Shown in pieces: positions 31,724-55,653 of a DNA stretch of 64,000 nucleotides. Below the pieces are notes generated by a model. That model was not told where the DNA came from and ran no database searches. It saw only the letters and a list, made by a program, of their open reading frames with translations. Location of the stretch: NCBI GenBank assembly GCA_903930585.1, contig CAIYZD010000133.1:70-64069 (forward strand). Reading direction: 5' to 3'. The translations under genes were made by a program, and so were the position numbers. This stretch comes from an uncultured Geobacteraceae bacterium (GTDB taxonomy: Bacteria; Desulfobacterota; Desulfuromonadia; Geobacterales; Pseudopelobacteraceae). Within the stretch, counting starts at the first letter, position 1. The number at the start of each line of letters is the position of its first letter.

Positions 31724-32574
31724 TCGGGATGTATTCGCAACGCAGAGATCAATACGGGTTCTCCCTGGTGGAATTACTGGTTGTGATGGTGATCTTCGGA
31801 ATCTTTTCCGGAGCTGTCTACTCCCTGTATATTACCCACCTTAAAACGGCATATTCCCGTGACGAGGTTATTGATGTACAGCAGAACGTCCGTATTGCCA
31901 TGGATCGTTTGAGCAGAGACATACGCATGGCAGGACTGTTTGTTACCCCTCCCGTTACGAAAACAATGAGCAACTATTCTACCATAAGCATCCGAACCAC
32001 TCCCATAGATATGACAAGAGTTACGATATCGCAGCTTTTGTCCGAACAGAGTGAAAAATTTGTTGTTACTCCCGCGGCAAATCTCCCCGTCAATATGCCA
32101 GTCGGTACTGCCGCCGTCGTTTTGCGCCCTACAACCAAGACACAGATAGGTGGTGTTTTTTCTGTGATCTCGTCAACGACAGCGGGACACCTGGCCGTAT
32201 CACCACTGCCGACATATCCCAATGTCCCTGTTTTGGGAGATATGGTTTTAAAAGTGGCCACAACTTTTCCGGTGACAATCCGGTACCGTATTGACCGCAC
32301 CGATACAAGTCTCGGCTGTGATCTCTCTCCATGTCTCATGAGAAACTCGGATGTCATTGCGCAAGGAATCAACAACATCCGCTTTACCTATTATCTTAGT
32401 GGAGTAAATACGGATCCTAAAACAGATGCAAGCGTACTGAGCGATGATGATGTCAAAAAAATATCCGCTCTCCGGGTGACTGTTACCGGCATGACAACCA
32501 AAAAATCCGGAACGGATAACAGCATTAAAACGCGCGAGCTGGTGACTTTTGTAAAATTGAGGAATTACCGGTGA
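31720..32574 (+). CDS. pilW: Type IV minor pilin PilW-like
   Basis: 284 aa, with a 4-nt overlap with pilV. It has YGFSLVELLVVMVIFGI and the PilW-like motif VQQNVRIAMDRLSRDIRMAG. Confidence 0.8.
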   Translation: MIGMYSQRRDQYGFSLVELLVVMVIFGIFSGAVYSLYITHLKTAYSRDEVIDVQQNVRIAMDRLSRDIRMAGLFVTPPVTKTMSNYSTISIRTTPIDMTRVTISQLLSEQSEKFVVTPAANLPVNMPVGTAAVVLRPTTKTQIGGVFSVISSTTAGHLAVSPLPTYPNVPVLGDMVLKVATTFPVTIRYRIDRTDTSLGCDLSPCLMRNSDVIAQGINNIRFTYYLSGVNTDPKTDASVLSDDDVKKISALRVTVTGMTTKKSGTDNSIKTRELVTFVKLRNYR

Positions 32575-33089
32575 CGTGCGCGGAGCACATTGATACGGCA
32601 TGCACTGACACGCTGCCGCCTGTACAGCCGTCATGTGCCAACGAGCGCGGAGCGGCTCTGATTATAGTACTGGTCATGCTGCTGCTGCTGACTGTTCTCG
32701 GGGCAACGTTACTGTCAACATCCACCACCGACTTGCAGATTGCCGGAAACTATCGAAACAATCAGAGGGCGTTCTATGTCAATGACTATGCCTTTGAGTT
32801 ATTGAAAACAAGCGATAGCGAAGTGAACGTTTATCTCCGAAGCGATCTGGCTCAAAAAGGCGATACCAGAACATTTACAACTAATCTGCCTACAACCGGA
32901 GAGGCGGTCACGTATACTGTCTCCAACGTTGGCTGCCTGGGAGGCGCTCCTGCCGGCAGCGGCAGTGATGCCGATTCCAGCAATTACTACAACATCTATG
33001 AAATTGAAATTACCGGCAATGGCCCAAACAACGCCAAAACAACTTCCCTGGCAGGAAATCTGTATCAGAGAAGCAGACCGTGCGAATGA
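32571..33089 (+). CDS. pilX: PilX-like minor pilin/assembly protein
   Basis: 172 aa with a GTG start overlapping the pilW stop. ERGAALIIVLVMLLLLTVLGATLL...LQIAGNYRNNQRAFYVNDYA resembles the PilX N-terminal domain. Confidence 0.7.
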   Translation: MTCAEHIDTACTDTLPPVQPSCANERGAALIIVLVMLLLLTVLGATLLSTSTTDLQIAGNYRNNQRAFYVNDYAFELLKTSDSEVNVYLRSDLAQKGDTRTFTTNLPTTGEAVTYTVSNVGCLGGAPAGSGSDADSSNYYNIYEIEITGNGPNNAKTTSLAGNLYQRSRPCE

Positions 33090-33111
33090 TCGTAAACGGC
33101 ATGGAGATTCT

Positions 33112-33477
33112 ATGAAAAAAACAGTTCTTGCGACGATACTGACAGTCCTTATACTGCTGACAACCGTTTCCGGACTCATGGCCGAGAACAGCCCGGAGAG
33201 TCTCTTTACCCGTCAAGCCTACAATCCCGCGGTGGTTTATAACGGGTCATTCAGGACAAATGCCATCTATTTTCATAATCGACGCAATCCCGTCTGGTAC
33301 CCTGGCCTGAAAGAAGAGCTGGATTCCATAAATTGCAAAGCGGCACAGGACAGTTTCAGGAAGAGCGGCAGATGGAATGGTCATTTTGTACAGGGGAGCT
33401 CCTGTGGTGAAACGTCCGAACCGACTGAATGGGCAGTTGGTAACTGGCTTAATTTCAGCGCTGTAAAGGGCAAATAG
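33112..33477 (+). CDS. Hypothetical secreted protein within the pilus operon
   Basis: 121 aa starting at the ATG at 33112 (MKKTVLATILTVLILLTTVSGLMA, signal-peptide-like). No family was recognised. It lies between pilX and pilY1. Confidence 0.55.
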   Translation: MKKTVLATILTVLILLTTVSGLMAENSPESLFTRQAYNPAVVYNGSFRTNAIYFHNRRNPVWYPGLKEELDSINCKAAQDSFRKSGRWNGHFVQGSSCGETSEPTEWAVGNWLNFSAVKGK

Positions 33478-33522
33478 TAAAGAAGGCTATTCGTTACACG
33501 TTTCCGGATGTGGAGGTGATGT

Positions 33523-36500
33523 ATGAAGCAGTTGATTACGGTGTTAATTTTATATTCCTTTACGATAGTATGCGCGACAGGCTCGGCTTTTGCGGCATCC
33601 TGCGATCAATATCCGGGTGACACCTGGATCTACGGTGGTATAACATCAGTCATCAACCCCAATGTTCTCATCATAATCGACACATCGACCAGTATGAGCG
33701 ACACCGTACCCGGTACAGCCGGAGATTATGACCCGTCTTCGACATATTCAACGATGAGAGTATGTTACAGCAGCAACAACAGCAATAATTCTTCAAACTG
33801 TTCCGCAAATGAGATATATAAGTGGAATTCCTCCAGCAGCAGGTGGGTGGATGACGGCTACACACTTTCCAACGTCACCACAAGCTGCAACAACGCAAAT
33901 CCCAAGAACCTGCTGTCTACTACCGGCAAGTATACCGGACGTTCACTCAAAACCAACAATACCGCAGGCGCCTGTGCATCAAGCGGAACCAGCATATATG
34001 CAACCGGCAACTGGATCAACTGGGATGCCGGCGGAACCGTTAATGTGCCTAAAATCGATGTTGCCCGCACTGTTGTCAAAAATCTGATTTCCAACACTAC
34101 CGGCGTAAATTTTGGCGTTATGATCTACAGGAGCAGTGACGATCAGGGTTCACGCTTTTTCGATTACAAGGCTGACGGGACAAACAACTACGAAACAACC
34201 ATCAAGGATATGGATGCCATTTACAGCGGCAGCATAACAAACCGTGATGCCCTGATAGCCTCCATCAACACAACAACCGTCAAAGCGTCTGGGTATACCC
34301 CGCTCGCGGAGTCGCTCTATGAAGCGGGCAGGTATTTCGGAGGGGGGCAAAGCGCATTCTCCAATACTGTGGGGCTTTCCGGCACCCCTCTCAAATATAC
34401 AACCCCTATTACCGCCAGTTGCCAGAAAAACTTCATAATTTTTGTCACCGATGGCATGTCTACATCCGACAACTCATCTATTCTTAAGACAATTTACCCG
34501 GCTGGCTGTTCCGGTTCGGCCTGTACCGGCGATTTTGATGGGGACGGAGTAGAACCGGGTGACATGTCCCACAGCATGGACGATGTGGCAAAATACCTTC
34601 ACGATACCGATCTGCTTTCTGACAGCACCGCCGTAGGCAAAGAGTATACGATCGGTAAACAGTACGTTTCCACTTATACCATCGGTTTTGGCACTGTCGG
34701 GGCCGATGCGGACGCAGTTGCTCTTCTTGAACGTACGTCTGACAGCAGTCATGGAAATGGCAAGGCATATCTGTCGACAGATCAATCCGGCCTGACAACA
34801 GCCTTTACCCAGATAATCTACGCCATACTGTCGGTAGACACCTCCTTTGTTGCCCCTGTTGTGCCGATAAGCCCTGACAACAGAACATATGGCTCCAACA
34901 GGATCTACATGGGGTTCTTCAAGCCTGAAAACCAGACCTACTGGCGCGGCAACCTGAAGAAATACGGTCTCGATGCCAACAACAACATCATCGACAGGAA
35001 CGGCAACGCTCCTTTTACGCCGACCAGTTTATCTTACTGGAACGCAAGCACAACACCGGATGAGGACAAAGTTGATCTGGGCGGGGCAGGAGCAATGCTG
35101 TTGAGTAGAACCACAGCCAGAAACCTCTACACATACACCGGGACAAACGCCGACTTGACCAACACAAGCAATCTGTTCATCAAGACTAACACGGCCATTA
35201 CGGCAACCACGCTTAATGTTGCCGATGACGCTACAAAGGCCGATCTTGTTGATTTCGTCCAGGGCTATGATACGTACGGCAAGGGTTCAGGAACGACCAT
35301 CAAACGGGAGTGGCTTTTTGGTGATGTTCTCCATTCCAAGCCGCTGGTAGTCAACTATGCAACCTATACAATGTCATCTGCCAATGAGAGTAACTGTACC
35401 GTAAACAAATCAATTATCTATGTCGGCAGCAATGACGGCATGCTGCATGCCATTAATGATTGCGACGGCAGCGAAGCATGGGCCTTCATTCCCCCTGAAG
35501 TTTTGCCGAACCTCCAGGAAATCCCGAACGATATTCACACCTACGCGGTGGACGCATCTCCCTCCGTGTATATCTACGATGCCAACAAGGACGGGAATAT
35601 TGATACAACGACCGACAAGGTAATACTGATGATCGGCCTGAGACGGGGGGGGGGACCGAACAATTACAGCGGCGTAGCAGCGAAAGGCTCGTATTATGCC
35701 CTGGATGTCAGTAACCCGGCAACGCCCAGGTATTTATGGAATCTTTCCAATGCGACAACCGGTTTTTCTGAACTGGGAGAAAGCTGGGGAGAGCCGAAAA
35801 TTGTAAAGATGAAGATCGGAACCGCTTCCAAGGTAGTGGCATTTATTCCGGGAGGGTATGACAATATGAATGAAGACAGCCGATACGGCGCTACCCTCAA
35901 CTTTACCGGCACGGGTACGGTCAGTAATTCAACCAGCGGCGCCGGGAATCTGATAAGTACCCCCATTACTCCGGCAGTTTCCCCGTTCAGTCCGAAAGGG
36001 CGGGGAATCTACGCCGTCGAGATTGCCACGCTGTCCAGCAACGGAACATCAACCATCGCCACAACCCCCACCAGGATCTGGGGAGTCGTACAAGGTTCAA
36101 CGACCAGCTACACCTCCTCACCAGCCACGGATGCTGGTATGACTTTTCCCATAGTGTCCGACACCACTACACTTGACGTGGACGGCAATGGCTACATCGA
36201 CCGGCTATATGCAACCGACCTGGGGGGTAATCTGTGGCGTTTCGATGTGGGAAGCACGAATACCGCATCATGGACAGGATATAAAATCTTCAGCGCCAAT
36301 CCGGCTTCGGGCGCAGATACGGGACGCAAACTTTTCTTCAAGCCGGTTGCGACGTTAGATACCAAAGCGACCGTATCTTCACGAGGCCTTGATGCATTGA
36401 TTTTCATGGGAAGTGGCGATCGTGAGCATCCTACGAATACGTCCGTAGTTGACAGGATATATGCCGTTAAAGACAAGGGGCAGACCAGCAGCAAAACGGA

Positions 36501-37035
36501 AGCTGATCTCACCGACGTCACCACCAATGATCTCCAGGGGGCAACGGCCACCAACGCTACGGTAAACTCCCTTTTGAGCAGCCTGAACTCATCGTACGGC
36601 TGGTATATACAGCTGAGTCAGAATAGTGGTGAAAAGGTACTGGCGCAACCGGTGCTTTCAAACAAGATTGCCTACTTAACTTCGTTCACCCCTGGAGCAT
36701 CAATCAATGTCGATCCCTGCCGCCCTTCCAACCTGGGAACAAGCCGTCTTTATGTGCTTAATTACGCTACCGGCGAAGCGGTTATGAATTATGATACCAG
36801 CAACGACGGTTCCCTCTCATCAACCACAAATAAAAGGGCAATATCAGGCGGGGCGGTCCTCCAGCGGAGTGACAGGTCAAAAACACTCGGATCCGGCATC
36901 GCTTCCGGTGTTGTAATTGTGGGTAACAAAGCGTTGATAGGGGACGAAGGTGAAATTAAAACGGAGATGACCAAAGCAGGATCCCCCGGGAGCTCGGGTG
37001 GAAGGATAATCAATCTCTATTGGGGTCAGAAGTAG
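33523..37035 (+). CDS. pilY1: PilY1/PilC-like pilus tip protein with an N-terminal vWA domain
   Basis: 1170 aa with a signal peptide and a vWA MIDAS motif (IIIDTSTSMSD, VTDGMSTSD). The C-terminal PilY1 propeller carries EF-hand-like loops DANKDGNID (35578-35604) and DVDGNGYID (36175-36201), followed by DLGGNLWRFD. Confidence 0.88.
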   Translation: MKQLITVLILYSFTIVCATGSAFAASCDQYPGDTWIYGGITSVINPNVLIIIDTSTSMSDTVPGTAGDYDPSSTYSTMRVCYSSNNSNNSSNCSANEIYKWNSSSSRWVDDGYTLSNVTTSCNNANPKNLLSTTGKYTGRSLKTNNTAGACASSGTSIYATGNWINWDAGGTVNVPKIDVARTVVKNLISNTTGVNFGVMIYRSSDDQGSRFFDYKADGTNNYETTIKDMDAIYSGSITNRDALIASINTTTVKASGYTPLAESLYEAGRYFGGGQSAFSNTVGLSGTPLKYTTPITASCQKNFIIFVTDGMSTSDNSSILKTIYPAGCSGSACTGDFDGDGVEPGDMSHSMDDVAKYLHDTDLLSDSTAVGKEYTIGKQYVSTYTIGFGTVGADADAVALLERTSDSSHGNGKAYLSTDQSGLTTAFTQIIYAILSVDTSFVAPVVPISPDNRTYGSNRIYMGFFKPENQTYWRGNLKKYGLDANNNIIDRNGNAPFTPTSLSYWNASTTPDEDKVDLGGAGAMLLSRTTARNLYTYTGTNADLTNTSNLFIKTNTAITATTLNVADDATKADLVDFVQGYDTYGKGSGTTIKREWLFGDVLHSKPLVVNYATYTMSSANESNCTVNKSIIYVGSNDGMLHAINDCDGSEAWAFIPPEVLPNLQEIPNDIHTYAVDASPSVYIYDANKDGNIDTTTDKVILMIGLRRGGGPNNYSGVAAKGSYYALDVSNPATPRYLWNLSNATTGFSELGESWGEPKIVKMKIGTASKVVAFIPGGYDNMNEDSRYGATLNFTGTGTVSNSTSGAGNLISTPITPAVSPFSPKGRGIYAVEIATLSSNGTSTIATTPTRIWGVVQGSTTSYTSSPATDAGMTFPIVSDTTTLDVDGNGYIDRLYATDLGGNLWRFDVGSTNTASWTGYKIFSANPASGADTGRKLFFKPVATLDTKATVSSRGLDALIFMGSGDREHPTNTSVVDRIYAVKDKGQTSSKTEADLTDVTTNDLQGATATNATVNSLLSSLNSSYGWYIQLSQNSGEKVLAQPVLSNKIAYLTSFTPGASINVDPCRPSNLGTSRLYVLNYATGEAVMNYDTSNDGSLSSTTNKRAISGGAVLQRSDRSKTLGSGIASGVVIVGNKALIGDEGEIKTEMTKAGSPGSSGGRIINLYWGQK
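35645..35654 (+). repeat. G10 homopolymer inside pilY1
   Basis: Direct count: cgg ggg ggg gga encodes RGGG near codon 708. This is the longest homopolymer noticed in the window. Confidence 0.95.
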
Positions 37036-37053
37036 TAAATCCGGAAAACTGCC

Positions 37054-37557
37054 ATGAAGAAAACAGGCTTGTTAACATATAACCGGTTGCTTTCCCGTAC
37101 CGGTTTTACCCTGACCGAAGTGATATTAGGTATCGGCTTGATGGCGATACTCAGCGCTATGGCCCTGCCGTCATTTATTGGATGGCGGCGGAATCTGTAT
37201 TTCAAACAGGCCGCAAGTGATATTGCCAATTCGCTTAAGACTGCAAAAAGCAAGGCAATTACATTAAATCAGCAGTATGGAGTTCAATTTGTTCCTGCGG
37301 ATAGATCTTACCAGTTCGGCAAATACAGTACCAATCAATGGGTATATTTCGGGAACAAAGGATACCTGTCAAACCAGGTCGTAATGAACTTGAACGGAAC
37401 AGCCAGCGCCAACACCCCGCCAACTCCAAACATCTGGTTCGATACAAATGGCGCCAGTTTTAACAATTACAGCATTCGTATCAAGGATGCAACCACAGTC
37501 AAATATACCGTTTCTGTGGAAAGGTCAGGCAGGATCAGGAATACCAGGATAAAATGA
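37054..37557 (+). CDS. fimT: GspH/FimT-family pseudopilin
   Basis: 167 aa. TGFTLTEVILGIGLMAILSAMALPSF is followed by a GspH-like segment (AASDIANSLKTAKSKAI). Confidence 0.78.
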   Translation: MKKTGLLTYNRLLSRTGFTLTEVILGIGLMAILSAMALPSFIGWRRNLYFKQAASDIANSLKTAKSKAITLNQQYGVQFVPADRSYQFGKYSTNQWVYFGNKGYLSNQVVMNLNGTASANTPPTPNIWFDTNGASFNNYSIRIKDATTVKYTVSVERSGRIRNTRIK

Positions 37558-37622: not shown

Positions 37623-38009
37623 CTACGGCGCCGGCGGCGCCGGAACCACTCTCATCCACCCTTTCGGACATTGCTTCACGTACGGATAATACCCCTGCGG
37701 ATCCTGGCAATAGTACCAGTACACCTGTTCCGGCAGCGGTGCAGGGGCATACTGCGGCGCCGGTTGCACATACACTTCGGGCAGAGGTTGCTGGATGATG
37801 ACCGGCACCGGAGCGTAATACACTTCATGTGGGTAGGAATAATAGGGATGAGACAACTCCCACAATCCGATACCGAGTCCCAGACCGACTACCGGCCACC
37901 ATCCCGGGCCGCCCCGTCCGCCGCCATGAAAATGTTCGGCCTGACCTGACCCCGCGCACATAAAAAGCAGTGCGATAACGCTCACCAACATACCCATATA
38001 CTTTTTCAT
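37623..38009 (-). CDS. Secreted Pro/Tyr-rich small protein with a C-terminal two-Cys motif
   Basis: The ATG at 38009 is preceded by GGAGG with a 5-nt spacer. It has a signal peptide (MKKYMGMLVSVIALLFMCAGSGQA), a Gly/Trp stretch and a Pro/Tyr-rich body ending WYYCQDPQGYYPYVKQCPKGWMRVVP. Confidence 0.65.
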   Translation of the reverse strand: MKKYMGMLVSVIALLFMCAGSGQAEHFHGGGRGGPGWWPVVGLGLGIGLWELSHPYYSYPHEVYYAPVPVIIQQPLPEVYVQPAPQYAPAPLPEQVYWYYCQDPQGYYPYVKQCPKGWMRVVPAPPAP

Positions 38010-38198
38010 ATAAACCTCCACATCACTACAACCGTAATCCTTGATGTCACACCCAACCGCTACTTCTACGTAACATCAGTGTAGTCTTTAATTGTGGAGT
38101 AAATAAGGAATAAATAAGGATTTTAACAAGAGTACCATGACCGCCAGGAGCGTTCTGCCGCTATGTCGTCTGATACGTTCCGTTTTGGCATAAAACCG

Positions 38199-38594: not shown

Positions 38595-38623
38595 TTGACA
38601 TTTTCGAACAGCGCTGTTATCTT
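38595..38623 (+). promoter_or_regulatory. Candidate sigma70-type promoter of the AOR gene
   Basis: TTGACA (38595-38600), 17-nt spacer, TATCTT (38618-38623). This would give a leader of roughly 215 nt before the ATG at 38845. Confidence 0.35.
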
Positions 38624-38728: not shown

Positions 38729-38844
38729 AGTCAGGGTTTCGGCTTAAAAGATTAACTCATCAATATATCTTGTATACTAGACATGTTGGAGCAATTCGTA
38801 CTCAGCTTTACATTCCGCTATAATGAAAAATGTGGAGGTACTTA

Positions 38845-41169
38845 ATGGATATCAGGGCAAAGGTTGAACGACTCACGGCGCGTATGCACGACGGTCCCCA
38901 GTATACAACTCAAGGTGCTGTGTTGTTTGTAGACCTGGAACAGAAAAAATTCTTTTCCCGCTACCTGCCGAAAGATGTAATTCATACGGTTCTCACCAAC
39001 CGCGGGGCAAACATGTATCTGCTCTACAATCTTCTGCTGGATGGAAAAGATCCGCTGGATCCACAAATTCCGATTATTTTCGGAAGCGGCGCCCTGACGG
39101 GAACCGTTCCCACGGCCACGCGCGGCAATGTCAGCAGCATCTCTCCGGAAAGCTATGCCATCCTCGACAGTAACTGCGGCGACGCCTTTCCCACGTTTCT
39201 CAAATTTCATGGCTACGACCATCTGGTCCTGTACGGTCAGGCCACTGACTGGACCCTGCTCAAAATTTCCGGTCAGGAGGTCAGCTTCCATGATGCCACA
39301 CCTTATCTGGGTATGGATAACCATGATGTCACGCAAGCGGTGGAAAGGGATTTTTCCTGCACCGAGCGCAAGGATATGGCCATGGCCCGCATTACCAGTG
39401 CGGGAGAGAACCTGAATCTCTTCGCCGGCATCATGGGCGGCGTCAAGGCGATCTATGCGCGGGGTGGTGGCGGGGCCAAAATGGGTTCCCTCAGACTCAA
39501 GGCAATCATGATCCAGGGGCGCGGAGAGCAACCCGCTCTTTCTCCGGCCTTCAAGGAGAACAACCGGGCCATTGCCCAAAAGATCCTCTCTGCCAGCGTC
39601 ATCAAGAATGCCCTGAAAACGGTCGGCACCCCTTTCCTTTACAAGCCGAGCCGCATTCTCGGCGCCATGGGGACCAGAAACAACCAGGAGACCAGCTGGA
39701 GTGATTCACTTGATGCCGACAACTTTGACGTCTATCGACCAGGTATGGACGGATGCCTCAAATGTCCGGTCCGCTGTCGGCCACTCAACGACCTTACCCC
39801 CGAAGGGAAAGGGGGGTGGGGAACTGCCGCACTCAAGGGGCTGACCGGCAACGCCAGCTACGATCAAGCTCAGGCAAGAGTCGAACATGGTAAGGCAAAA
39901 ACGTACCGGGGAATCAACAATGACGACAGGTTTGACCGATACGACAGGGGTGACGGTCCCGAATACACCACCCTGCAGAAGATGGGTCCCATGATCGGCA
40001 TCAGCGAGCCGGAGCAGGTTGTGCGACTGAACAATATCCTCAATGAGCTCGGACTTGACTCGGCCGGCGCCGGCAGCGCCATTTCCTGGGCCATGGAACT
40101 CTACCAGAGGGGGATCATCACGGATAAGGAAACCGGAGGGCTCGATCTGAGCTGGGGCAATTACCCGGTGGTGGAAAAGCTGCTCTTCATGTCCGCCAAA
40201 CGGGAGGGCTTTGGCGATGTCATTGCCGATTCCAGCCGGGCGGCGGACAAGGGCAAGTATCCCGCGGAGGCTCTGAAATACCGGATGACGATCAAGGGAC
40301 TGGCCCAGTCCGATCCCCACGATGCGCGCATTCTCAAGGGGTTCGCTCTTGGTCTTGCCGTAGCGACCCGCGGCATGGATCATCTCCGCAATCGCCCCAC
40401 ACTGGAGATAAATGCCAAGATCAACTCAAACCGTAAAATCAAGGCCGCCCTGTATGGTGGCGATGTGGCTCCGGAACCTACCGGCTATCAAGGCAAGGAA
40501 TATGCGGTCCGCCGCTGCGAAAACAGTTATGCCGTCGGTGACTCGGTCGGCATGTGCCGCTTTACGACCAAGTATTTCAATTCCCCTTCGACGGCCGATA
40601 ACGAGGACTTTTCCGGACAACTCACCGAACTGACGGGAGAGTCGTTCACCGGAGAGCAACTCAACGAGATCGGTCGCAACATCACGGGACTGGAGCGGCT
40701 GATAAATGCGCGGATCGGACTGACCGAAAAGGACGATACCCTGCCCGACCGGTGGTTCGACGAAGAGATCACGGTTGGCCAGTTTGCAGGAGAGAAAATC
40801 GACCGGGCACAATTCGCGGAGCTCAAGTCACGTTTTTACGCGGTGACCGGTTTGAATGCTTCCGGAGTACCGGCACTGGAGTGGCACCGGAAACTGGCCG
40901 GGGTGATCACAGGATTTGCCGTCAAGGTCTGGCTTCCCTATGGCTTGCCGGGTGCTCCGGAAGGAGCGGTCATCGTAGACCAACCGGTTGGCACTGTAGC
41001 CGAGCTACGCGAGGCGCTGAAAAACAGGCTTCCCCATGCGGTACTGCAGTTGGAGGATAGCAGCCTGAATGTTGTGGTTAATGGCTCCGTGGTGCTTTCC
41101 AATGAGCAGGCTGTTCCTGTTACGAATGGAGATGAGGTTACTATTATGGCCATGCTCGCCGGCGGGTGA
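38845..41169 (+). CDS. Aldehyde:ferredoxin oxidoreductase-family tungsten/molybdopterin enzyme fused to a C-terminal MoaD/ThiS-like domain
   Basis: The ATG at 38845 follows GGAGG. It has an AOR N-terminal domain, a cluster motif CLKCPVRC, GPEYTTL and VGMCRF. The last 85 aa (40912-41166) align by eye with E. coli MoaD and end in Gly-Gly. Confidence 0.85.
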   Translation: MDIRAKVERLTARMHDGPQYTTQGAVLFVDLEQKKFFSRYLPKDVIHTVLTNRGANMYLLYNLLLDGKDPLDPQIPIIFGSGALTGTVPTATRGNVSSISPESYAILDSNCGDAFPTFLKFHGYDHLVLYGQATDWTLLKISGQEVSFHDATPYLGMDNHDVTQAVERDFSCTERKDMAMARITSAGENLNLFAGIMGGVKAIYARGGGGAKMGSLRLKAIMIQGRGEQPALSPAFKENNRAIAQKILSASVIKNALKTVGTPFLYKPSRILGAMGTRNNQETSWSDSLDADNFDVYRPGMDGCLKCPVRCRPLNDLTPEGKGGWGTAALKGLTGNASYDQAQARVEHGKAKTYRGINNDDRFDRYDRGDGPEYTTLQKMGPMIGISEPEQVVRLNNILNELGLDSAGAGSAISWAMELYQRGIITDKETGGLDLSWGNYPVVEKLLFMSAKREGFGDVIADSSRAADKGKYPAEALKYRMTIKGLAQSDPHDARILKGFALGLAVATRGMDHLRNRPTLEINAKINSNRKIKAALYGGDVAPEPTGYQGKEYAVRRCENSYAVGDSVGMCRFTTKYFNSPSTADNEDFSGQLTELTGESFTGEQLNEIGRNITGLERLINARIGLTEKDDTLPDRWFDEEITVGQFAGEKIDRAQFAELKSRFYAVTGLNASGVPALEWHRKLAGVITGFAVKVWLPYGLPGAPEGAVIVDQPVGTVAELREALKNRLPHAVLQLEDSSLNVVVNGSVVLSNEQAVPVTNGDEVTIMAMLAGG

Positions 41170-41195
41170 AGCAAGCTTTATCTGCTTCACCCGCC
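41161..41195. terminator. 13-bp perfect stem-loop between convergent genes (candidate bidirectional terminator)
   Basis: GGCGGGTGAAGCA (41161-41173), a 9-nt loop, then TGCTTCACCCGCC (41183-41195). The AOR stop codon (41167-41169) lies in the left arm. No clear U-tract is present on either strand. Confidence 0.5.
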
Positions 41196-41254
41196 GGCGA
41201 TATCCGTGGCAGCGGGGTGTAACTTCGAGCCCTTCTTATATGCTCTTTTGGCGC

Positions 41255-42248: not shown

Positions 42249-44273
42249 CTATTTCTTAAAATCCGGTTTACGTTTTTCCAGGAAGGCATACACCCCTTCC
42301 TTGGAGGCATCGATACAGGAGATGTCACCGCTCCCCTGGTAGTTGATCTCCAGAGCTGCTTCCAGTGAACCGGCGGCTGCCGCCTGGTTAACGACCCGTG
42401 CCACGATGGACAGAGCCTCTTTGCTCAGAGCCATTTTGCCCGCAACCGGGTTTTCGGGTACGGTGAACTCGACAATATTGACCGGGGCATCGCTGATGCG
42501 CGGAACATTGCCGATGAGTCGGTTGACTTCGCTGATGGCGGCATCGATCATTTCAATGTAGCCGTTGGTAACCTGTTTGACGATGCCGATCTCCTGGGCC
42601 TCTTTGACGGTCAGGCGCTTGGCCGCGCCGATCATGGCGTTGAAGGTCTCGGAGGCGTGCGGCCATTTGCGGTAAGGAATAACCGCCCCACCCATGCCGG
42701 GCAGGATCCCCAGGGTGATTTCCGGCAGTTGGAAGAAGGCATCCTTGTCGGCTACCAGGCTGTGGCAGCGCAGGGCCACTTCAACACCGCCCCCCATGGC
42801 CAGACCGTTTACTGCGGCGACGACCGGCTTGTCCATCTTGTCCATGAAGTGCAGGACTTCCGAGTTGCCCCGGGCCAGATCCACCCCGGCGGTATGGTTG
42901 TCGATGGTGGCAATGAAGCCGTTGATGTCGGCTCCGGCGCAGAATGCCTTGGTGCCGTAACCGGTGATGACGAAGCCTTTAACAGCCGGATCGTTGGCCC
43001 CTTTTTTCAGTTCGGTGAGAATCTCGCTGCAGGTACCGCCTCCCAGTGAGTTGGCGACCTGGGGACGACGGATTGTGATGATCCGTACCCCTTCCTTGTC
43101 ATCCACCAGGATGTCACGGGAGAAGTTCAGGTAGTCGGCAATCGGTCGTTTGGCACGGGGGAAACCGGGACGCTCATTATTGAAAGCGGCCATGATGCGC
43201 TCCACTTCCCGGGTGCCCATCTCTTCCATGATGTCGAAGACACCTTTCTTGAAGCCCAGGGCGATCAGGCTGCCGAAGTTCAGGTCTTCACGGGTACCGA
43301 TGGTACGGTCGGCGATGTCGAAACATTGGGAGAAGACCAGACCGATCATGCGATCACGGATCCATTCCTTGAGGTCTTCAGGTACGTCGATTCTGGTGCC
43401 CGGTTTGGCCACGTTCCACTTATCGACGGACAAGAGGACCGGTGAAGGGGCATAGCATGCCCGCTCGGCGGTGCGGCGCAGTTGTGATTCATAGGTAATC
43501 GGGTTGCCGCCGGCCATGTTGAGGACGAAGAAGGGGCCGGCGCCGACCCACTCTTCACAGACGGAGTCGACCTGGTAGGTGGTTGCTTTGTCCACCAGGT
43601 AGGCGGCTTCGTTGGTCCAGTTCTCAAAGACGCGGTTGAGCAGGAAGGAGAAGACGTTATCGGTGACGACCGGTGCTTTGCCGGTGTTGGCGAAGAACCA
43701 GATCAGATAGTTGAGCAGTTCCCGGCTGGCTCCTTCCCAGTTGATTACTTCCACGGCCATGCTGCGCCAGGCCGGGGCAAAGAAGTGGGTGATGGTGGAG
43801 CGCTCGGGGTGTTTCATGCCACTGAAGATCTGCTGGGCCGGGATTCCGCTGGTGTTGGAGGTCAGGACGCATCTTTCGTCGACAATCTCTTCCAACTGAG
43901 CGAAGATCTTCCGCTTCAGGGGCAGACTTTCGGTGGCTGCTTCAATGACCAGTCCGCAGTTTTTAAGCTGGCTGTAGTCGGTGGTGTAGACGATGTTGCC
44001 CAGGATCTGGTCGGCTTCAGCCTGGGTCATCTTCCGGCGGTCGAGCCCTTTCTGGGCGTAGGATTGAAAACGCTTTTCGGCTTTCTTGAGCGGTTCCTCA
44101 GCCACGTCCACCAGATAGAGTTTCTTGTCCGGTGCCCCGGTCCTCAGGTAGTAGGCGATGTCCGGGCCGATATGGCCGGCGCCGATGACCGCCATTTCGT
44201 CCGGGATGGGACGGTCGGTCTGGACCAGGTAAGGGTTGAAGTAGGATGGGTAGAGTTTCTTTTCAGCGGCCAT
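42249..44273 (-). CDS. Fused 3-hydroxyacyl-CoA dehydrogenase / enoyl-CoA hydratase
   Basis: 674 aa with an N-terminal NAD-binding HAD domain (VIGAGHIGPDIA) and a C-terminal crotonase fold (KAFCAGADI, VAAVNGLAMGGG). Confidence 0.85.
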   Translation of the reverse strand: MAAEKKLYPSYFNPYLVQTDRPIPDEMAVIGAGHIGPDIAYYLRTGAPDKKLYLVDVAEEPLKKAEKRFQSYAQKGLDRRKMTQAEADQILGNIVYTTDYSQLKNCGLVIEAATESLPLKRKIFAQLEEIVDERCVLTSNTSGIPAQQIFSGMKHPERSTITHFFAPAWRSMAVEVINWEGASRELLNYLIWFFANTGKAPVVTDNVFSFLLNRVFENWTNEAAYLVDKATTYQVDSVCEEWVGAGPFFVLNMAGGNPITYESQLRRTAERACYAPSPVLLSVDKWNVAKPGTRIDVPEDLKEWIRDRMIGLVFSQCFDIADRTIGTREDLNFGSLIALGFKKGVFDIMEEMGTREVERIMAAFNNERPGFPRAKRPIADYLNFSRDILVDDKEGVRIITIRRPQVANSLGGGTCSEILTELKKGANDPAVKGFVITGYGTKAFCAGADINGFIATIDNHTAGVDLARGNSEVLHFMDKMDKPVVAAVNGLAMGGGVEVALRCHSLVADKDAFFQLPEITLGILPGMGGAVIPYRKWPHASETFNAMIGAAKRLTVKEAQEIGIVKQVTNGYIEMIDAAISEVNRLIGNVPRISDAPVNIVEFTVPENPVAGKMALSKEALSIVARVVNQAAAAGSLEAALEINYQGSGDISCIDASKEGVYAFLEKRKPDFKK

Positions 44274-44322
44274 GGGTTCTCTCCTTGATGATTGAATACG
44301 ATATATGCGTCTCGATATGGTT

Positions 44323-45513
44323 TTAGTTCACCTTGATTACGATTGATGCGGCGGTGTCACCGGCGGCGCAACCGGAGAAGAGCAGGTAGCCGCCACCTTT
44401 TGCGGCCACCTCCTCGATCCCTTCGATCATCAGACGGGCGCCGGTAGGCGCCTGGGGATGGCCGTATATCAATGAGGAGCCGAAGTTGTTCATGCTGTTA
44501 ACATCCAGACCGAGGGTTTTCGCCATGGCGATGTCGTTGGCGGCAAAGGGGTTATGCGTCTTGACCGCTTTTACATCAGCCACTTTTATGCCGGCCCGGT
44601 CGAGCGCCATCTGGGCGGACGGGGCGACGGCGGCGGCCATATAGGCTTTTTTCGTGCGGGCGTAGCCGAAGGAGAGAAGCTGGATTTCGATGTTCGGGTC
44701 GGCGCTCAGTTCGCGCGCTTTGTCCCGGGTAGTTACCGAAACCCCGCAGTTGCCGTCGGCCGGGAAGGTCTGAGCGCCGAAGGTGTGGACGCCGTCCGGG
44801 AGGACGGGACGCAGGCCGGCAAGTCCTTCCGCCGTGGTCGGCATGACCCCTTCATCGGCTTCAACGGTGATGGTTTTCTTCTTGGATATCTGTACTTCGA
44901 CCGGGAACATGTAGCGTTTCTGGAATTCACGGTCGTTGGCCAGGGCGTCCTGGTACTGTGCGTAGCGCCTGAGGGTGAGTTCATCGCACTGTTCGCGGGT
45001 GATGCCGGCCTCTTTGCTGACGTTCTCGGCGGTCTGGATCATCGCCTGGCCGGCCCATGGATCTTTGTTAACGTTGTCCATGAACCAGTCTTCGGCGATC
45101 GGTTTGCCGCCGGGGCCGTTCGGGTTCGGCCAGATGGCGTGCGGGCCGTTGGAGCAGCGGTCGGCCAGCAGGCACCAGCTGTTTTCAAACATGCCGGTTT
45201 CAATCCCCTGGCCGGCCTGGTAGAGGGAGAAGGCAGAGGTGGAGCAGGCCTGGGTGATGAGGACGCCGGGGGAGTTCACGGCGCCCAGCATGGCGGCGGC
45301 CCAGGGACCGGTGTAGAACCAGGACTGCTGGTAGACGGTACTGCCGACAAATACGTATTCGATGGCCATCGGGTCCCACCCTTTGCTCTCCAGAAAACGT
45401 TTGGAGGTGGCAGCGCCGAGGGCGATGGCGTTCTCATTGGCCAGTGTCCCCTGCCATTTGACAAACGGGGTGCTGTAGTAGCCGCGATAGGGGATGAATG
45501 CTTTGGTTAACAT
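44323..45513 (-). CDS. Thiolase-family acyltransferase
   Basis: 396 aa with a thiolase N-terminal active-site region (TQACSTSAFSL) and a C-terminal region (NNFGSSLIYGHPQAPTG...GCAAGD). Confidence 0.8.
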   Translation of the reverse strand: MLTKAFIPYRGYYSTPFVKWQGTLANENAIALGAATSKRFLESKGWDPMAIEYVFVGSTVYQQSWFYTGPWAAAMLGAVNSPGVLITQACSTSAFSLYQAGQGIETGMFENSWCLLADRCSNGPHAIWPNPNGPGGKPIAEDWFMDNVNKDPWAGQAMIQTAENVSKEAGITREQCDELTLRRYAQYQDALANDREFQKRYMFPVEVQISKKKTITVEADEGVMPTTAEGLAGLRPVLPDGVHTFGAQTFPADGNCGVSVTTRDKARELSADPNIEIQLLSFGYARTKKAYMAAAVAPSAQMALDRAGIKVADVKAVKTHNPFAANDIAMAKTLGLDVNSMNNFGSSLIYGHPQAPTGARLMIEGIEEVAAKGGGYLLFSGCAAGDTAASIVIKVN

Positions 45514-45662
45514 GGATGTTCCTCCTCGTGTAAAATAAATGGCATAAACTGGTATTATATCATGGTATGATTACCCGTAAAAAAGATATTGTCAATCAGG
45601 CACCTTTTCAATACAGAGTACCCAATTAGGTACCCTGAACCGTCTACCGGAGATTTGGGAAA

Positions 45663-46076
45663 ATGGAAGAGAGTTATCAACCACAAGGAAAATTCCAGTA
45701 CCGGGGCAAGGAGTACTACTGTCCGGTGGACGTGACCCTGGCCATTATTGGCGGGAAATGGAAACCGGCCATCCTTTGGCACCTCAAAAAAAGAACCATG
45801 CGCTTTTCCGAATTGCAGCGCAGATTTCCCGACACGACACGAAAAATGCTGACCCAGCAACTGCGGGAACTGGAAGCTGACGGGGTGATCCAGCGTAAGG
45901 TCTATGCCGAGGTACCTCCACGGGTGGAATACTCCTTTACCGAAAAGGGGCATACTGTTAATAACGTTCTTATTTTGATGTACGACTGGGGAAAACAATT
46001 TTTACAGGAATCAAACGCAAACGTCTACACAGCCGAGATGCCGCCATCCACCACCAGTTCCGTACCAGTAATGTAG
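45663..46076 (+). CDS. HxlR-family winged-helix transcriptional regulator
   Basis: 137 aa. CPVDVTLAIIGGKWKPAILWHL....MRFSELQRRFPDTTRKMLTQQLRELEADGVIQRKVY..VPPRVEYSFTEKG is a textbook HxlR core. The 3' end overlaps the convergent SDR gene by 52 nt. Confidence 0.88.
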   Translation: MEESYQPQGKFQYRGKEYYCPVDVTLAIIGGKWKPAILWHLKKRTMRFSELQRRFPDTTRKMLTQQLRELEADGVIQRKVYAEVPPRVEYSFTEKGHTVNNVLILMYDWGKQFLQESNANVYTAEMPPSTTSSVPVM

Positions 46077-46837
46077 CAGGCTGCATCGGAGGCCAGAAAG
46101 TGCACCGCCGCGACAACATCGGAGGTTTCGCCGATGCGCCCCAGCGGCGTGCTGCTTTTGATGAAATTCAGCCCCTGCTCGAAGTCACCGCCGAAGATCA
46201 GGTTGGCAACGTCCTGAACAGCCTTGTCCCCCATCTCGGTCCTGGTAACACCGGGGTGAACGGAGTTCACCCGGATATTCATAGCGCCGAACTCCGCCGC
46301 CACAGCCTTGCTGAACAGGCGCACCGCCCCCTTTGATGCACAGTAGCCGGCGAAACCGGGGACACCTACCAGACCCGCCACCGATGACAAGTTGATGATG
46401 GACCCGCCTCGGCCTTCTCTACCTTCGCTTGTCATGGCGGCAAGGGCATGTTTTGTCCCCAGAAAAACTCCCTCGACATTAATAGAGTGCATGCGCCGCC
46501 ACTCCTCGACGCTCATCTGAAGCAGCGGCTTGGCAATCTCGATACCGGCATTATTGATCAGTACGTCCAGCCCGCCGAATGCCTCCAGGGTGGCGGCAAT
46601 TCCCCGCTGCCAATCCTCCTCGCGGGTCACGTCCAGTGTGCAGAAAGCCGCTTCCCTCCCCTGTTCACAGATGGAACGGGCCACATCCTTACCGAGCTCA
46701 TCAAGAATATCGGCCAGCATTATTTTTGCACCGGCCTGCGCCAGAGACCGAGCGCAATCCAGGCCGATCCCCCGGGCAGCACCGCTGATTAAAACAACTT
46801 TGCCATTAACATCGAAGTTTGTTTTTTGTTTCGTCAT
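46025..46837 (-). CDS. Short-chain dehydrogenase/reductase
   Basis: 270 aa with GAARGIG (TGxxxGIG), NNAG and a YCASK catalytic motif. Confidence 0.88.
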   Translation of the reverse strand: MTKQKTNFDVNGKVVLISGAARGIGLDCARSLAQAGAKIMLADILDELGKDVARSICEQGREAAFCTLDVTREEDWQRGIAATLEAFGGLDVLINNAGIEIAKPLLQMSVEEWRRMHSINVEGVFLGTKHALAAMTSEGREGRGGSIINLSSVAGLVGVPGFAGYCASKGAVRLFSKAVAAEFGAMNIRVNSVHPGVTRTEMGDKAVQDVANLIFGGDFEQGLNFIKSSTPLGRIGETSDVVAAVHFLASDAACYITGTELVVDGGISAV

Positions 46838-46883
46838 ATCCGTATCTCCTTCCGCCCTCGCGGTTCAACATGTCAACGTTCCG

Positions 46884-47999
46884 TCAGTATCCGACCGGCT
46901 CCAGACACCAGAGTCCCGCCTCCTGCATGGCGCTGATCAGTTCACGGTGTCCAAAAGCAGCCGTTGCCGGTTGGTAGCCGACCTTTTTCAGACGCCCGAT
47001 AAGGATGCGCCGGCAGGCCTCAGCAATCAGAAATCCGGTCTGCAGGTACCCCGAAGTACCGTAAAACGCCAGGTGCTTACCAACCGTATTGCCACGGGCA
47101 AAAACAGAAATCATACAGCGCTGGATAGAAGGATCTTCCTTGATCAGCGCATCGGGGTCCGGCGACATGGCGCGTCCCCAGGCGTTGGTGATTTCTTCCA
47201 TCTCCGCCGCGGTTCTGGTTTTTGCCAGTTCGTGATATTCGACTATGCGCCCGTGGACCAGATTGACCACTTCCCGGCTCGTGAACGAGACGGCAACCTT
47301 GCAATTGCGCACACGGCTGTCGTTTTCAAACCAGATCGGCTCAAAACCACCCCCCCAGGGTACCGCCGCCTGAATCTGATGGTTGCCGGGGACGAACACA
47401 TCGAACTTGGCCAGCGGATCCCACTGTTTCATGACACCGTCTTCCTTGTAGAGCTGCGGCAGGCAACACATGCGCAGGAACGACAGGGTCGATGCGGGGG
47501 TGGGATTGCCACGCGGGGCATAGAGGATGTCCAGACTGTCGATGCCGGGTGTTTCGAGCGCCACTTCCGCAGCAACCATACCGGTAACCCACATGGCGGC
47601 ACACTCGGAAATGGCGACGGTATTATTGGCGGCGAACTGGCCGCCATAGGTGTCACGCAGCATGAGGGTGTAGTCCGGTTCTCCCGTTGTATCAAGGTAG
47701 TGACACTTGTTGGCAAGTGCCGCCTTGATGACCGGCTCCGCCAACTGGCCGAACGGACCGACGACGTTGGCGACAACCTGCGCGCCTTCGAATAATTTTG
47801 TGAGTGCAGCTTCCGTATGTTCACAGGCCACAATGTCCACGACATGATTGCCGGGCACTTTTTTAAGTTCAGCTACTATTCTGTCGCGACTGCGTCCCGC
47901 TGCCACAAACGGAATACCTTCCCGTGTGAGGTATTCGGCGATTATCTTGCCGGTATAGCCGCTGATGCCGTAGACGACGAGTGGGTATTTGCTGGCCAT
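46884..47999 (-). CDS. Saccharopine-dehydrogenase-like NAD(P)-binding protein (trans-acting enoyl-reductase-like)
   Basis: 371 aa. The N-terminal Rossmann fold (LVVYGISGYTGKIIAEYL) resembles the saccharopine dehydrogenase NADP-binding family. The function is not assignable. Confidence 0.6.
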   Translation of the reverse strand: MASKYPLVVYGISGYTGKIIAEYLTREGIPFVAAGRSRDRIVAELKKVPGNHVVDIVACEHTEAALTKLFEGAQVVANVVGPFGQLAEPVIKAALANKCHYLDTTGEPDYTLMLRDTYGGQFAANNTVAISECAAMWVTGMVAAEVALETPGIDSLDILYAPRGNPTPASTLSFLRMCCLPQLYKEDGVMKQWDPLAKFDVFVPGNHQIQAAVPWGGGFEPIWFENDSRVRNCKVAVSFTSREVVNLVHGRIVEYHELAKTRTAAEMEEITNAWGRAMSPDPDALIKEDPSIQRCMISVFARGNTVGKHLAFYGTSGYLQTGFLIAEACRRILIGRLKKVGYQPATAAFGHRELISAMQEAGLWCLEPVGY

Positions 48000-48011
48000 G
48001 ATGTATCTCCT

Positions 48012-49625
48012 TTATCGGTGATTTTCCGTATAGACGGATGTAGGTTGTGTTTCGAACAATTCAATCAGGAAACGGTCCTGCGGTTTTTCAGATGCAGTTT
48101 TTGGTATGATATCGAGCAGTTGCAGATACCTTGGCATCTGACTTGGCTCCAGTTTCTGCCGGCACATCATGTAGATAGCCTCAGGTTTAAACCCGGCCCG
48201 GTCCTTGGGCACAATCGCTGCGACCACCTCCTTCTCACCAGGCGTACCGTTAGTGGAGGTGATGCCATAGACGTAGACGTCGTCTACGGTATCGTTCTCG
48301 GCGATTACCTTCTCGATGAAGCCGGAATTGATGAACTCGCCATTACGACGGATGGCGCCACCCTTGCGGTACAGGAAAAAGATCCAGCCATCCTGATCAG
48401 CGACAACAATATCGCCCATATGCAGCCAGCCATCTTTGACCTTTGCAGCCGAGGCCTCGGGATTGCGGTAATACTCGACCTTTGCCGGCGAACCGTCGCC
48501 TGGCCGGAACAGCAGCTCGCCGGAAATACCGGGAGCGCAATCGTTGCCATTTTCGTCTACAATGCGGTAGAGAAGAGTGACTGGAGGTTTGCCGATGCTG
48601 CCGATGGGCCCGACGCCGACCGGTTTGATCGACATACCACCTTCAATGGCCGCATAGAATTCGAGGATTTGCACATTGTAGCGTTGTTCGAACTCTTCCC
48701 AGATCGCCTTGGGCATGCCGGAACTGATGATGAGACGCACCGGATTATCAGCGTCGTCCGGCTTGCGTGGATCGGCGAAAACTGCGGTCATCATCCCGCC
48801 TAACAGATTAAACGAAGTGCAGCCATAGCGGCGGGTAATATCCCACAACCGGCTTTTGCTGAATTTGCGTGACAGCACACAGGGAAAGCCCCCAACCAGG
48901 GCGGAACCAAGCGTGATGAATTGAGCATTGCCATGCGTCAACGAGAGTCCCGAATAGAGGATGTCGCCGGTCCGATAACCGATCAAGCCCGGTGTCATTG
49001 CACCCAGCCCGCAATAACGGGCATGGGTCGTGATGATTCCCTTGGGGTCACCGGTTGTGCCGGAGGAAAAAATCAACTCCATGGCACGTTCCGGATCAAC
49101 AGTTCGAATGGTGATATTCGGCGCCTCCAGCGGCAGCGCATCCGCATACGGTGCGACCCCCGGATAAGAAGTCAGCGGCTTTTTTCCTTCATCCGTCTCA
49201 AAACCTATAATCCACTGTAGTCGGGGTAACTGTGAACGAACCTTGACCACGTTATCCAGCGCATAGTCGGCAGCTATCACCCCCTTGCACTCAGCCATCT
49301 CCAGCATGAACGTAAGCTTGTCACCACTGGTACGAGCGTCGATAGGCACAAACACGGTGCCGCTGATGGAGGCAGCGACCATCGCATCGACAAACTCCAC
49401 GTGGTTGTTCATCAGGAGCGCAAAATGGTCTCCCACCCCCATGCCGTGATCAATCAGTACCTGGGCCAGTTTCTGCCCCTGTTCCCACAACCCGCGATAG
49501 GTGCGCAGATCATCCGGTCGCACCCCGCCGTTTTCAAAGGTTACAATGGCACGGTCGGGCCGTGCGGCCATACGATTGGCAATAACTCCTGCCAGTACTT
49601 GTTCACTGTACATCATGACCGTCAA
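48012..49625 (-). CDS. AMP-dependent acyl-CoA synthetase/ligase
   Basis: 537 aa with the AMP-binding motif IFSSGTTGDPKG, then YG.TE-like and GDI...D.DGW motifs, and a C-terminal lysine region (PKTASEK). Confidence 0.88.
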   Translation of the reverse strand: MTVMMYSEQVLAGVIANRMAARPDRAIVTFENGGVRPDDLRTYRGLWEQGQKLAQVLIDHGMGVGDHFALLMNNHVEFVDAMVAASISGTVFVPIDARTSGDKLTFMLEMAECKGVIAADYALDNVVKVRSQLPRLQWIIGFETDEGKKPLTSYPGVAPYADALPLEAPNITIRTVDPERAMELIFSSGTTGDPKGIITTHARYCGLGAMTPGLIGYRTGDILYSGLSLTHGNAQFITLGSALVGGFPCVLSRKFSKSRLWDITRRYGCTSFNLLGGMMTAVFADPRKPDDADNPVRLIISSGMPKAIWEEFEQRYNVQILEFYAAIEGGMSIKPVGVGPIGSIGKPPVTLLYRIVDENGNDCAPGISGELLFRPGDGSPAKVEYYRNPEASAAKVKDGWLHMGDIVVADQDGWIFFLYRKGGAIRRNGEFINSGFIEKVIAENDTVDDVYVYGITSTNGTPGEKEVVAAIVPKDRAGFKPEAIYMMCRQKLEPSQMPRYLQLLDIIPKTASEKPQDRFLIELFETQPTSVYTENHR

Positions 49626-50857: not shown

Positions 50858-50917
50858 GGATATATCTCCTGGTTATCCTATTGATAAAACAGAGTCTTTC
50901 ATAGACCTATGCTTCAC

Positions 50918-51691: not shown

Positions 51692-51756
51692 GATACCCCC
51701 TTCAGCGTAGTGATCTGTCCTTGTTTTGTTCATCTGCCACCTTCATTCAGCCCGAC

Positions 51757-55634: not shown

Positions 55635-55653
55635 TTCCGTTCTCCCTGTTTTA

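Follow-up and report, generated by a model that had tools for sequence, protein, structure and literature searches.

A 64,000-nucleotide stretch of DNA from an uncultured Geobacteraceae bacterium (assembly GCA_903930585.1, contig CAIYZD010000133.1, positions 70 to 64,069), referred to below as the window, carries at 38845–41169 on its plus strand a gene for an enzyme of the aldehyde:ferredoxin oxidoreductase (AOR) superfamily that is joined at its C-terminus to a MoaD/ThiS-type domain. All features of the gene and its flanks given below lie on this strand unless otherwise stated. The coding sequence is complete and consists of a single uninterrupted open reading frame (ORF) of 774 codons plus a stop. 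An alternative ATG is present at 38830; since a Shine-Dalgarno-like GGAGG read from the sequence (38834–38838) lies 6 nt ahead of the ATG at 38845 and the homologues have the N-termini MDIR or MGIR, the latter is the likely start codon. A near-identical public protein (P0001) differs from the window protein by a single residue (N359H). The original prediction of an AOR enzyme fused to a MoaD/ThiS-type domain with a free Gly-Gly terminus was upheld by the Pfam domains found in this one intact ORF: AFOR_N, the pterin-binding N-terminal domain (residues 25–225, 38917–39519; E=1.6e-45, 155.7 bits against a gathering cutoff of 29.8), AFOR_C, which comprises domains 2 and 3 (residues 241–684, 39565–40896; E=1.2e-85, 288.4 bits, cutoff 27), and ThiS (PF02597; residues 709–774, 29.9 bits in the whole protein and 35.0 bits with the tail alone, cutoff 22.5).

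The MoaD/ThiS-type beta-grasp domain, hereafter the tail, comprises the last 85 residues (690–774; 40912–41166), exactly as they had been quoted, and is recognized by Pfam, structural modelling, profile comparison, BLASTP and codon substitution analysis. The codons of Gly773-Gly774 are followed immediately by a TGA stop (41161–41169). BLASTP aligned the tail to Escherichia coli MoaD with 34% identity over 74 residues (E=7e-8), two small gaps and the terminal Gly-Gly pairs in register. The earlier description of an almost position for position alignment is thus right as to the end-to-end register and overstated as to identity. A 21-sequence profile of the tail, compared with the sequences in the Protein Data Bank (PDB), matched CysO-type proteins (3e-8) and E. 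coli MoaD (1.2e-6) from end to end, and its sequence affinity is closest to the CysO/MoaD sulfur carriers.

The fold of the protein was predicted with AlphaFold2, the model of the whole protein being built from a 73-sequence alignment. This model has a predicted template modelling score (pTM) of 0.89, and the tail a predicted local distance difference test score (pLDDT) of about 90, with low confidence confined to the last four residues, for which flexibility and not packing is predicted. The secondary structure of the tail is beta-beta-alpha-alpha-beta-beta-beta, and modelling of the tail alone gave a pLDDT of 84.6. When the whole model was searched with Foldseek the AOR-family structures came first, followed by E. 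coli MoaD and other sulfur carriers matching the tail. For the tail alone the best match was E. coli MoaD in molybdopterin (MPT) synthase (1nvi_D/1fm0_D; query TM-score 0.72, target TM-score 0.78–0.79, root mean square deviation 2.7 A, 30–31% identity), then, in order, mycobacterial MoaD2, CysO, SAMP1 and the MoeB-MoaD complex. The top matches were all MoaD, CysO, SAMP1, ThiS or Urm1, each with a probability of 1.00. The beta-grasp fold anticipated for the C-terminus is therefore what structure prediction returned, and its match to MoaD is far beyond chance.

The enzyme body has the three-domain AOR fold in the model, with target TM-scores of 0.78–0.83 to 9mqx_D, 1aor_A, 9g7j_A, 8c0z_A, 1b25_A and 4z3w; the AFOR_N region is modelled with pLDDT above 90 and matches 1aor and 9mqx, and structure matches likewise cover AFOR_C. 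Identity to any solved AOR-family structure is only 19–26%. By alignment to the AOR of Pyrococcus furiosus, a CxxCxxxC motif (Cys304, Cys307 and Cys311; 39754–39777) would furnish three of the four ligands of the [4Fe-4S] cluster and Cys571 (40555–40557) the fourth. These residues correspond to Cys288, Cys291, Cys295 and Cys494 of the P. furiosus enzyme and are invariant in the 73 aligned homologues, and His513 aligns with P. furiosus His448. The two pterin-binding motifs we take to be of the form DxxGL(C/D)x. The second is retained as DSVGMC (Asp566 to Cys571), while the first reads NELGLDS (400–406), its leading aspartate (P. furiosus Asp338) being replaced by Asn400 (40042–40044), a near-invariant asparagine in the homologues. 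P. furiosus Glu313, a catalytic residue, aligns with Thr375 (39967–39969), which is Val in most homologues. The catalytic Glu313/His448 pair of AOR sensu stricto is accordingly incomplete here, the histidine being present and the glutamate replaced. With 96.9 bits against a cutoff of 868, the protein also falls below the NCBIfam AOR equivalog, and it is probably a member of the AOR superfamily that does not belong to the AOR sensu stricto subfamily. The replacements at Thr375 and Asn400 suggest a substrate or chemistry differing from those of classical AORs. The enzyme part is nevertheless predicted to be cofactor-competent, and because the AOR cofactor ligands (the four cysteines, His513 and Asp566 to Cys571) are retained it would require the cofactor in whose synthesis MoaD takes part.

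A further peculiarity of the body is an insert of approximately 45 residues (~318–364; 39796–39936) after the cysteine motif, which was mapped by alignment and with hidden Markov models (HMM). It is conserved within the Geobacter/Rhodocyclales subclade only, yet has low pLDDT. It is absent from P. furiosus AOR and the other solved AORs and also from the Acidobacteriota, archaeal and Myxococcales relatives, in which the HMM match breaks at this point.

Homologues were sought among ~5.8 billion proteins. Nearly all of the 120 clusters listed (67–100% identity) are 773–775 amino acids long and possess all three Pfam domains, and their sources are numerous independent projects, those on the isolates Aromatoleum toluclasticum, A. 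evansii and Azoarcus sp. PA01 among them. The terminal Gly-Gly is exact in 118 of these clusters and both exceptions, P0076 (740 aa) and P0090 (724 aa), are truncated or frameshifted within the MoaD domain, as assembly errors or decaying copies would be. The residue at position -3 is always Gly, Ala or Ser and those at -4 and -5 are hydrophobic. The body averages 77% identity to the window protein and the tail 63%; conservation reaches 97–99% at G773, G774, G762 and D763, and 99–100% at the junction residues T689, G690 and F691. In the comparison with the nearest genomic relative, the body has a ratio of nonsynonymous to synonymous substitution rates (dN/dS) of 0.075 and the tail one of 0.156; over the other pairs with estimable dS the tail lies between 0.12 and 0.28. 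The tail is under purifying selection. In the related loci the stop abuts the Gly-Gly throughout, although the stop codon varies (TGA, TAG or TAA) and the downstream DNA is unrelated. This arrangement is kept in ~98% of members, in bacteria and archaea and down to 48% identity, and the constraint on a C-terminus at exactly Gly-Gly is strong. Together with the small residue at -3, such a terminus would be expected of a carboxylate that enters the active site of an E1 enzyme rather than of a purely structural domain.

These data also bear on whether a sequencing or assembly frameshift had merged aor with a downstream moaD gene, as the original prediction had itself allowed. Split aor and moaD ORFs that overlap or abut do exist in relatives, and the truncated tails of P0076 and P0090 are probably errors or decay, both of which would suit an artefact. 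It was rejected, being vanishingly improbable, because the same continuous frame occurs in at least 118 independent clusters (those of the isolates among them), codon-level purifying selection extends across the junction and the tail, the three junction residues are conserved, and the stop after Gly-Gly is constant.

In an effort to define how widely the fusion occurs, the tail profile was used in an exhaustive HMMER search of 1.84 billion representative sequences. The fused family amounts to about one cluster at 50% identity (P0132) together with divergent fused fragments. The search also returned many free-standing proteins of 82–93 amino acids that end in Gly-Gly and share the motifs of the tail. 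Matches in several stretches of P0130, P0168 and P0208 were discarded as spurious, these proteins being repetitive. A word-indexed search with the tail alone found only contig-end fragments of AOR-MoaD fusions and no free-standing relatives. Two of the free-standing relatives could be placed, and both lie directly 3' of an AFOR_C ORF, one with a 4-nt overlap and the other after an 18-nt gap.

The species genomes of GTDB were then scanned, giving 41 loci whose states were assigned by HMM mapping. Fused genes terminating in Gly-Gly were found in Geobacter and other Geobacteraceae, Desulfuromonadales, Rhodocyclaceae, Burkholderiales and three metagenome-assembled genomes (MAGs), one each gammaproteobacterial, Myxococcales and archaeal. 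In Thermoanaerobaculia and other Acidobacteriota the gene is split: the AOR ORF stops at HMM position ~689, which is the junction of the fusion, and a Gly-Gly-terminated, MoaD-like ORF of 75–91 amino acids overlaps aor or follows within 0.9 kb. The tail is absent from more distant AORs (29–40% identity). A neighbour-joining tree of the AOR bodies (unbootstrapped) places fused and split forms in one clade apart from the tail-less AORs, the split forms as a single Acidobacteriota subgroup and the window protein beside those of Geobacter-type MAGs, with which it shares 84–88% identity. Fused and split forms alternate within one AOR clade. Both outcomes of the fused-versus-split survey that had been proposed were thus found in the family, and so was the expected proximity of small moaD-like genes to AOR genes. 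The fusion is genuine, ancient and widespread, and the window adds one Geobacter-type orthologue to it.

The loci were screened with phmmer for the genes of cofactor synthesis, the queries being the single E. coli sequences of MoaA to MoaE, MoeA and MoeB. In six split loci the moaD-like ORF is directly followed by a MoeA match. The order aor, moaD-like, moeA is common to the split Thermoanaerobaculia loci (L024–L027, L036 and L039), and it ties the small carrier to insertion of the metal.

The architecture itself is already known. Iyer, Burroughs and Aravind (Genome Biol 7:R60, 2006; Fig. 3, Table 1; PMC1779556) described an Azoarcus AOR that carries a fused MoaD domain at its C-terminus and proposed that AOR-linked MoaDs make the MPT of the AOR tungsten cofactor, and the NCBI databases already label homologues of the fusion as "MoaD/ThiS family protein". 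As a sequence finding it is therefore nothing new. That no characterised example is known, as stated in the original prediction, holds literally, in that no experimental study of an AOR-MoaD fusion protein was found in the open-access literature (subscription journals being mostly uncovered), while the novelty implied is contradicted by the 2006 publication. The Azoarcus/Aromatoleum proteins (P0101, P0110, P0116 and P0117) have the same three-domain architecture, the same length of 774 amino acids and the same Gly-Gly terminus, and their 67–68% identity to the window protein makes them one family with it. They differ from it in host lineage, the window protein grouping with those of Geobacter-type MAGs.

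The association of archaeal MoaD-type ubiquitin-like proteins (Ubls) with AOR was confirmed by Makarova and Koonin (2010). In the aor operon of Aromatoleum aromaticum there are two free MoaD-like genes, aorD and aorE, whose products do not co-purify with AOR (Arndt et al. 2019). A 2024 study of Thermococcus kodakarensis found that upon deletion of TK1065, the MoaD-type Ubl gene adjacent to AOR, AOR activity falls and FOR activity is no longer detectable in pyruvate medium; the Ubls of this organism act both as sulfur carriers and as protein modifiers, and the mechanism that pairs particular Ubls with their cognate tungstoenzymes was said by the authors to be unknown. These pairs (TK1066/TK1065, the latter being UblC, and aorABC-aorD/aorE) resemble the window gene in that the position of a MoaD-type Ubl gene assigns its product to a tungstoenzyme of the AOR family. 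The split Acidobacteriota pairs are closer still, since they belong to the AOR clade of the fusion and their ORFs break exactly at its domain junction. In the pairs the carrier is free and diffusible, whereas that of the window protein is covalent, apparently rigid and present in a 1:1 ratio.

Other fusions of MoaD are arranged differently. In MoaX of Mycobacterium tuberculosis and the MoaD-MoaE protein of Deinococcus radiodurans (cleaved by DRJAMM) MoaD is also joined covalently to a partner of the molybdopterin pathway, but it is N-terminal, its Gly-Gly is internal, and cleavage is needed to free it (PMC4326299, PMC8832034), which implies that the free carboxylate is what matters. In the window protein MoaD is C-terminal and its Gly-Gly free as translated, so that no protease is implied, and the partner is an enzyme that would use the cofactor rather than a synthase. 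The ubiquitin-like cleavage or maturation entertained in the original prediction gained no support, there being no JAMM gene nearby and the Gly-Gly being C-terminal already. E. coli MoaD (1FM0/1NVI; MoeB complex 1JW9–1JWB) shares with the tail the beta-grasp fold, 31–34% identity, a G-D-E-V motif and the terminal Gly-Gly in register; it differs in that the tail is joined at its N-terminus to a 690-aa enzyme, with no linked moaE or moeB. The tail is thus not a small free-standing protein as members of the MoaD family are, although such sister proteins exist. The body shares with the P. furiosus enzyme (1AOR), and with 9MQX, 9G7J, 8C0Z, FOR, WOR5 and BamB, the AFOR_N/AFOR_C fold (target TM-score ~0.8). 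The P. furiosus enzyme has the four cluster cysteines, the histidine and the second pterin motif in common with it as well; the low identity and the replacements of Glu313 and Asp338 set the window protein apart, and neither the ~45-aa insert nor the MoaD domain is found in the solved AOR-family structures.

On this evidence we lean, by a modest degree, towards the tail being a dedicated in-cis sulfur carrier for the enzyme's own W-bis-pyranopterin cofactor, a role of the kind already raised in the original prediction. The protein would be a metallopterin oxidoreductase ([4Fe-4S] and W/Mo-bis-pyranopterin) that has absorbed, as a rigid C-terminal domain, a MoaD-like carrier which in related organisms is a separate gene directly downstream of aor. 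The free carboxylate of Gly774 would be adenylated by the MoeB-type E1 of the cell, encoded elsewhere, and the adenylate then converted to a thiocarboxylate. With MoaE, the sulfur of this thiocarboxylate would build the dithiolenes of the two pyranopterins bound by the same polypeptide, and MoeA would then insert the metal. Since the carrier is C-terminal, such a pathway could dispense with the proteolytic processing of the MoaD-MoaE fusions. A maturation module working in cis would tie cofactor synthesis to the cognate apo-enzyme.

Several observations weigh against a dedicated sulfur carrier. The NCBIfam models for MoaD, ThiS and SAMP all match the tail, with scores that fall far short of the curated cutoffs (PRK11130, 23.8 bits against 94; TIGR01682, 18.2 against 66; moaD_arch, 20.1 against 49.5), and for that reason the tail, judged by its sequence, is a domain of the MoaD/ThiS family and not a canonical (housekeeping) MoaD orthologue. 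In the AlphaFold2 model there is no flexible linker, a helix (678–688) leading into the strand at 693–696 with pLDDT above 90, which suggests a rigidly docked rather than a loosely tethered domain whose MoeB/MoaE-binding face might be occluded. The partners are assumed to act in trans, because no MoeB, MoaE, MoaA or MoaC lies within 10 kb on either side of the fused genes and the moeA of the window, its sole molybdenum cofactor (Moco) gene (25454–26680, minus strand), is 12 kb upstream on the strand opposite to the fusion gene. Within the same distance of aor in all 41 loci the phmmer queries, which could miss very divergent partners, detected no MoeB, MoaE, MoaA, MoaB or MoaC. A few relatives carry residues beyond the Gly-Gly or have lost it: two archaeal fused genes encode 7–9 residues after it (L030, 165–2447; L031, 9998–12286), two free-standing genes encode 2 and 8 (L028, 3165–3488; L032, 11908–12213), and a fused Solibacteraceae gene ends in GEA (L034, 9023–12061); no JAMM protease gene was seen beside these variants. 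A tethered, stoichiometric carrier would moreover have to cycle four times for each W-bis-MPT.

Many of these features would suit a docked beta-grasp module that performs no sulfur chemistry and instead stabilises the apo-enzyme, binds or hands over the pterin or tungsten cofactor, or recruits MoeA, the Gly-Gly serving for binding. The rigid, high-confidence junction in a model with a high pTM, the sub-cutoff scores, the loss of Gly-Gly in the Solibacteraceae gene and a neighbourhood devoid of sulfur-transfer genes, in which the only linked Moco gene specifies the metal-inserting MoeA and not MoeB or MoaE, all point in this direction, as does the repeated evolution of metallopterin binding in beta-grasp domains, that of AOR-N included (Burroughs et al. 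2007). We consider such a module unlikely. A stop placed exactly after Gly-Gly in nearly all members and preceded by a small residue is hard to explain unless the carboxylate takes part in chemistry, and the four C-terminal residues are flexible in the predicted structure.

The remaining explanations retain that chemistry and direct it elsewhere. The thiocarboxylate of the tail might sulfurate a precursor already bound by AOR, so that the dithiolene is made independently of MoaE, or place a sulfido or other small ligand on the tungsten. The authors of the 2024 T. kodakarensis study themselves raised sulfuration of molybdopterin after the apo-cofactor has bound its target protein. That the carrier is fused to the enzyme or strictly next to it, and not to moaE, would be in keeping with this, as would the atypical active site (Glu313 replaced by Thr375, or Val in most homologues) and the conserved insert. 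Canonical MPT synthase chemistry requires MoaE, however, and we regard such donation in situ as improbable; the broader proposal that a carrier of the MoaD type, attached or (where the gene is split) adjacent, supplies sulfur to a pterin precursor or metal centre that the AOR apo-protein has already taken up is in our estimation quite improbable too. Conjugation of the SAMP/Urm1 type, in which isopeptide bonds from the Gly-Gly to lysines would cross-link the enzyme to itself or to partners or mark it for turnover, is very improbable. The fold does match SAMP1 and Urm1, and Ubls that double as modifiers have their precedent in T. kodakarensis, but no E1, JAMM or other conjugation gene is linked in the loci examined, and the tail is nearest in sequence to the CysO/MoaD sulfur carriers. 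We know of no precedent for a 774-aa "modifier".

The fusion bears on the question of how the pyranopterin/tungsten cofactor, which is labile, is made and reaches its particular apo-enzyme. With carrier and client joined 1:1 by nature, and with close split relatives for comparison, the protein could offer an experimental handle on the pairing of sulfur carriers with tungstoenzymes and serve as a natural test case for it. The fusion is also present in isolates of Aromatoleum, a genus from which AOR has been purified after overexpression in a mutant strain. If sulfuration took place in situ, the assembly of the tungsten cofactor would end with a MoaE-independent step on the enzyme itself, which would explain the matching of particular Ubls to particular tungstoenzymes.

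The flanks of the fusion gene were scanned for regulatory signals. A candidate sigma-70-type promoter (TTGACA-17-TATCTT; 38595–38623) lies ~220 nt upstream of the start codon; it is a consensus match at 10 of 12 positions in a region where the count of such sites is not above shuffled expectation. Upstream of the gene no Moco/tungsten cofactor riboswitch or other Rfam RNA element was found, the sole match being sub-threshold (E=0.92). At the 3' end a perfect 18-bp hairpin was revealed by folding (41156–41200; dG -47.4 kcal/mol, z=-7.9), the 5' arm of which is formed by the last four codons and the stop of the gene. It sits between convergent genes and is probably a transcript-end or insulating structure. 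The intrinsic-terminator scan made no call there because a U-tract is absent. The hairpin is not conserved in the homologous loci compared and is specific to the window.

The fusion gene stands alone in the window. No moeB, moaE, moaA, moaC or JAMM gene and no second moaD is present in the window, and three long homologue contigs likewise lack MoeB, MoaE, MoaA, MoaC and JAMM genes. Upstream, on the same strand, is a type IV pilus cluster with minor-pilin, PilX, PilY1 and GspH-like genes (31292–37557), and just ahead of the fusion gene lies a 132-aa, Pro/Tyr-rich ORF without a Pfam match (37623–38021, minus strand). Downstream, a Cache-domain protein gene and a beta-oxidation-like cluster run convergently towards the fusion gene. 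The latter (42249–52992, minus strand, and 53130–63066) specifies a 3-hydroxyacyl-CoA dehydrogenase/enoyl-CoA hydratase fusion, two thiolases, two SDRs, a DUF5938/saccharopine-dehydrogenase-like protein, an acyl-CoA ligase and an acyl-CoA dehydrogenase. MMPL, BNR, DUF1329 and DUF1302 genes and one for a MalT/LuxR-type regulator come after it. Elsewhere in the window, at 15848–19816 on the plus strand, are genes for a molybdopterin enzyme of the DMSO-reductase family with Fer4_22 and its NAD-binding/Fe-S partners.

Clustering of all neighbouring ORFs across the loci gave top clusters that are shadow ORFs of GC-rich DNA, only the lower clusters (IOR, PaaK-like ligase, ApbA, ACT, XylR/sigma-54 regulators and MoeA) being interpretable. 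The recurrent neighbours of aor are, apart from MoeA, 2-oxoacid:ferredoxin oxidoreductases of the IOR/POR type, PaaK-like CoA ligases, ApbA-like reductases and ACT proteins, as well as TRAP transporters and XylR/sigma-54 regulators; the fused-gene loci that show them are L002/L010, L011, L012, L016, L003, L014, L015, L020 and L035. Such neighbours hint that the setting of the enzyme is organic- or aromatic-acid metabolism. At L028, one of the free-standing loci with residues beyond the Gly-Gly, a proline-racemase-like gene lies directly upstream and a rhodanese-methyltransferase gene ~1 kb downstream.

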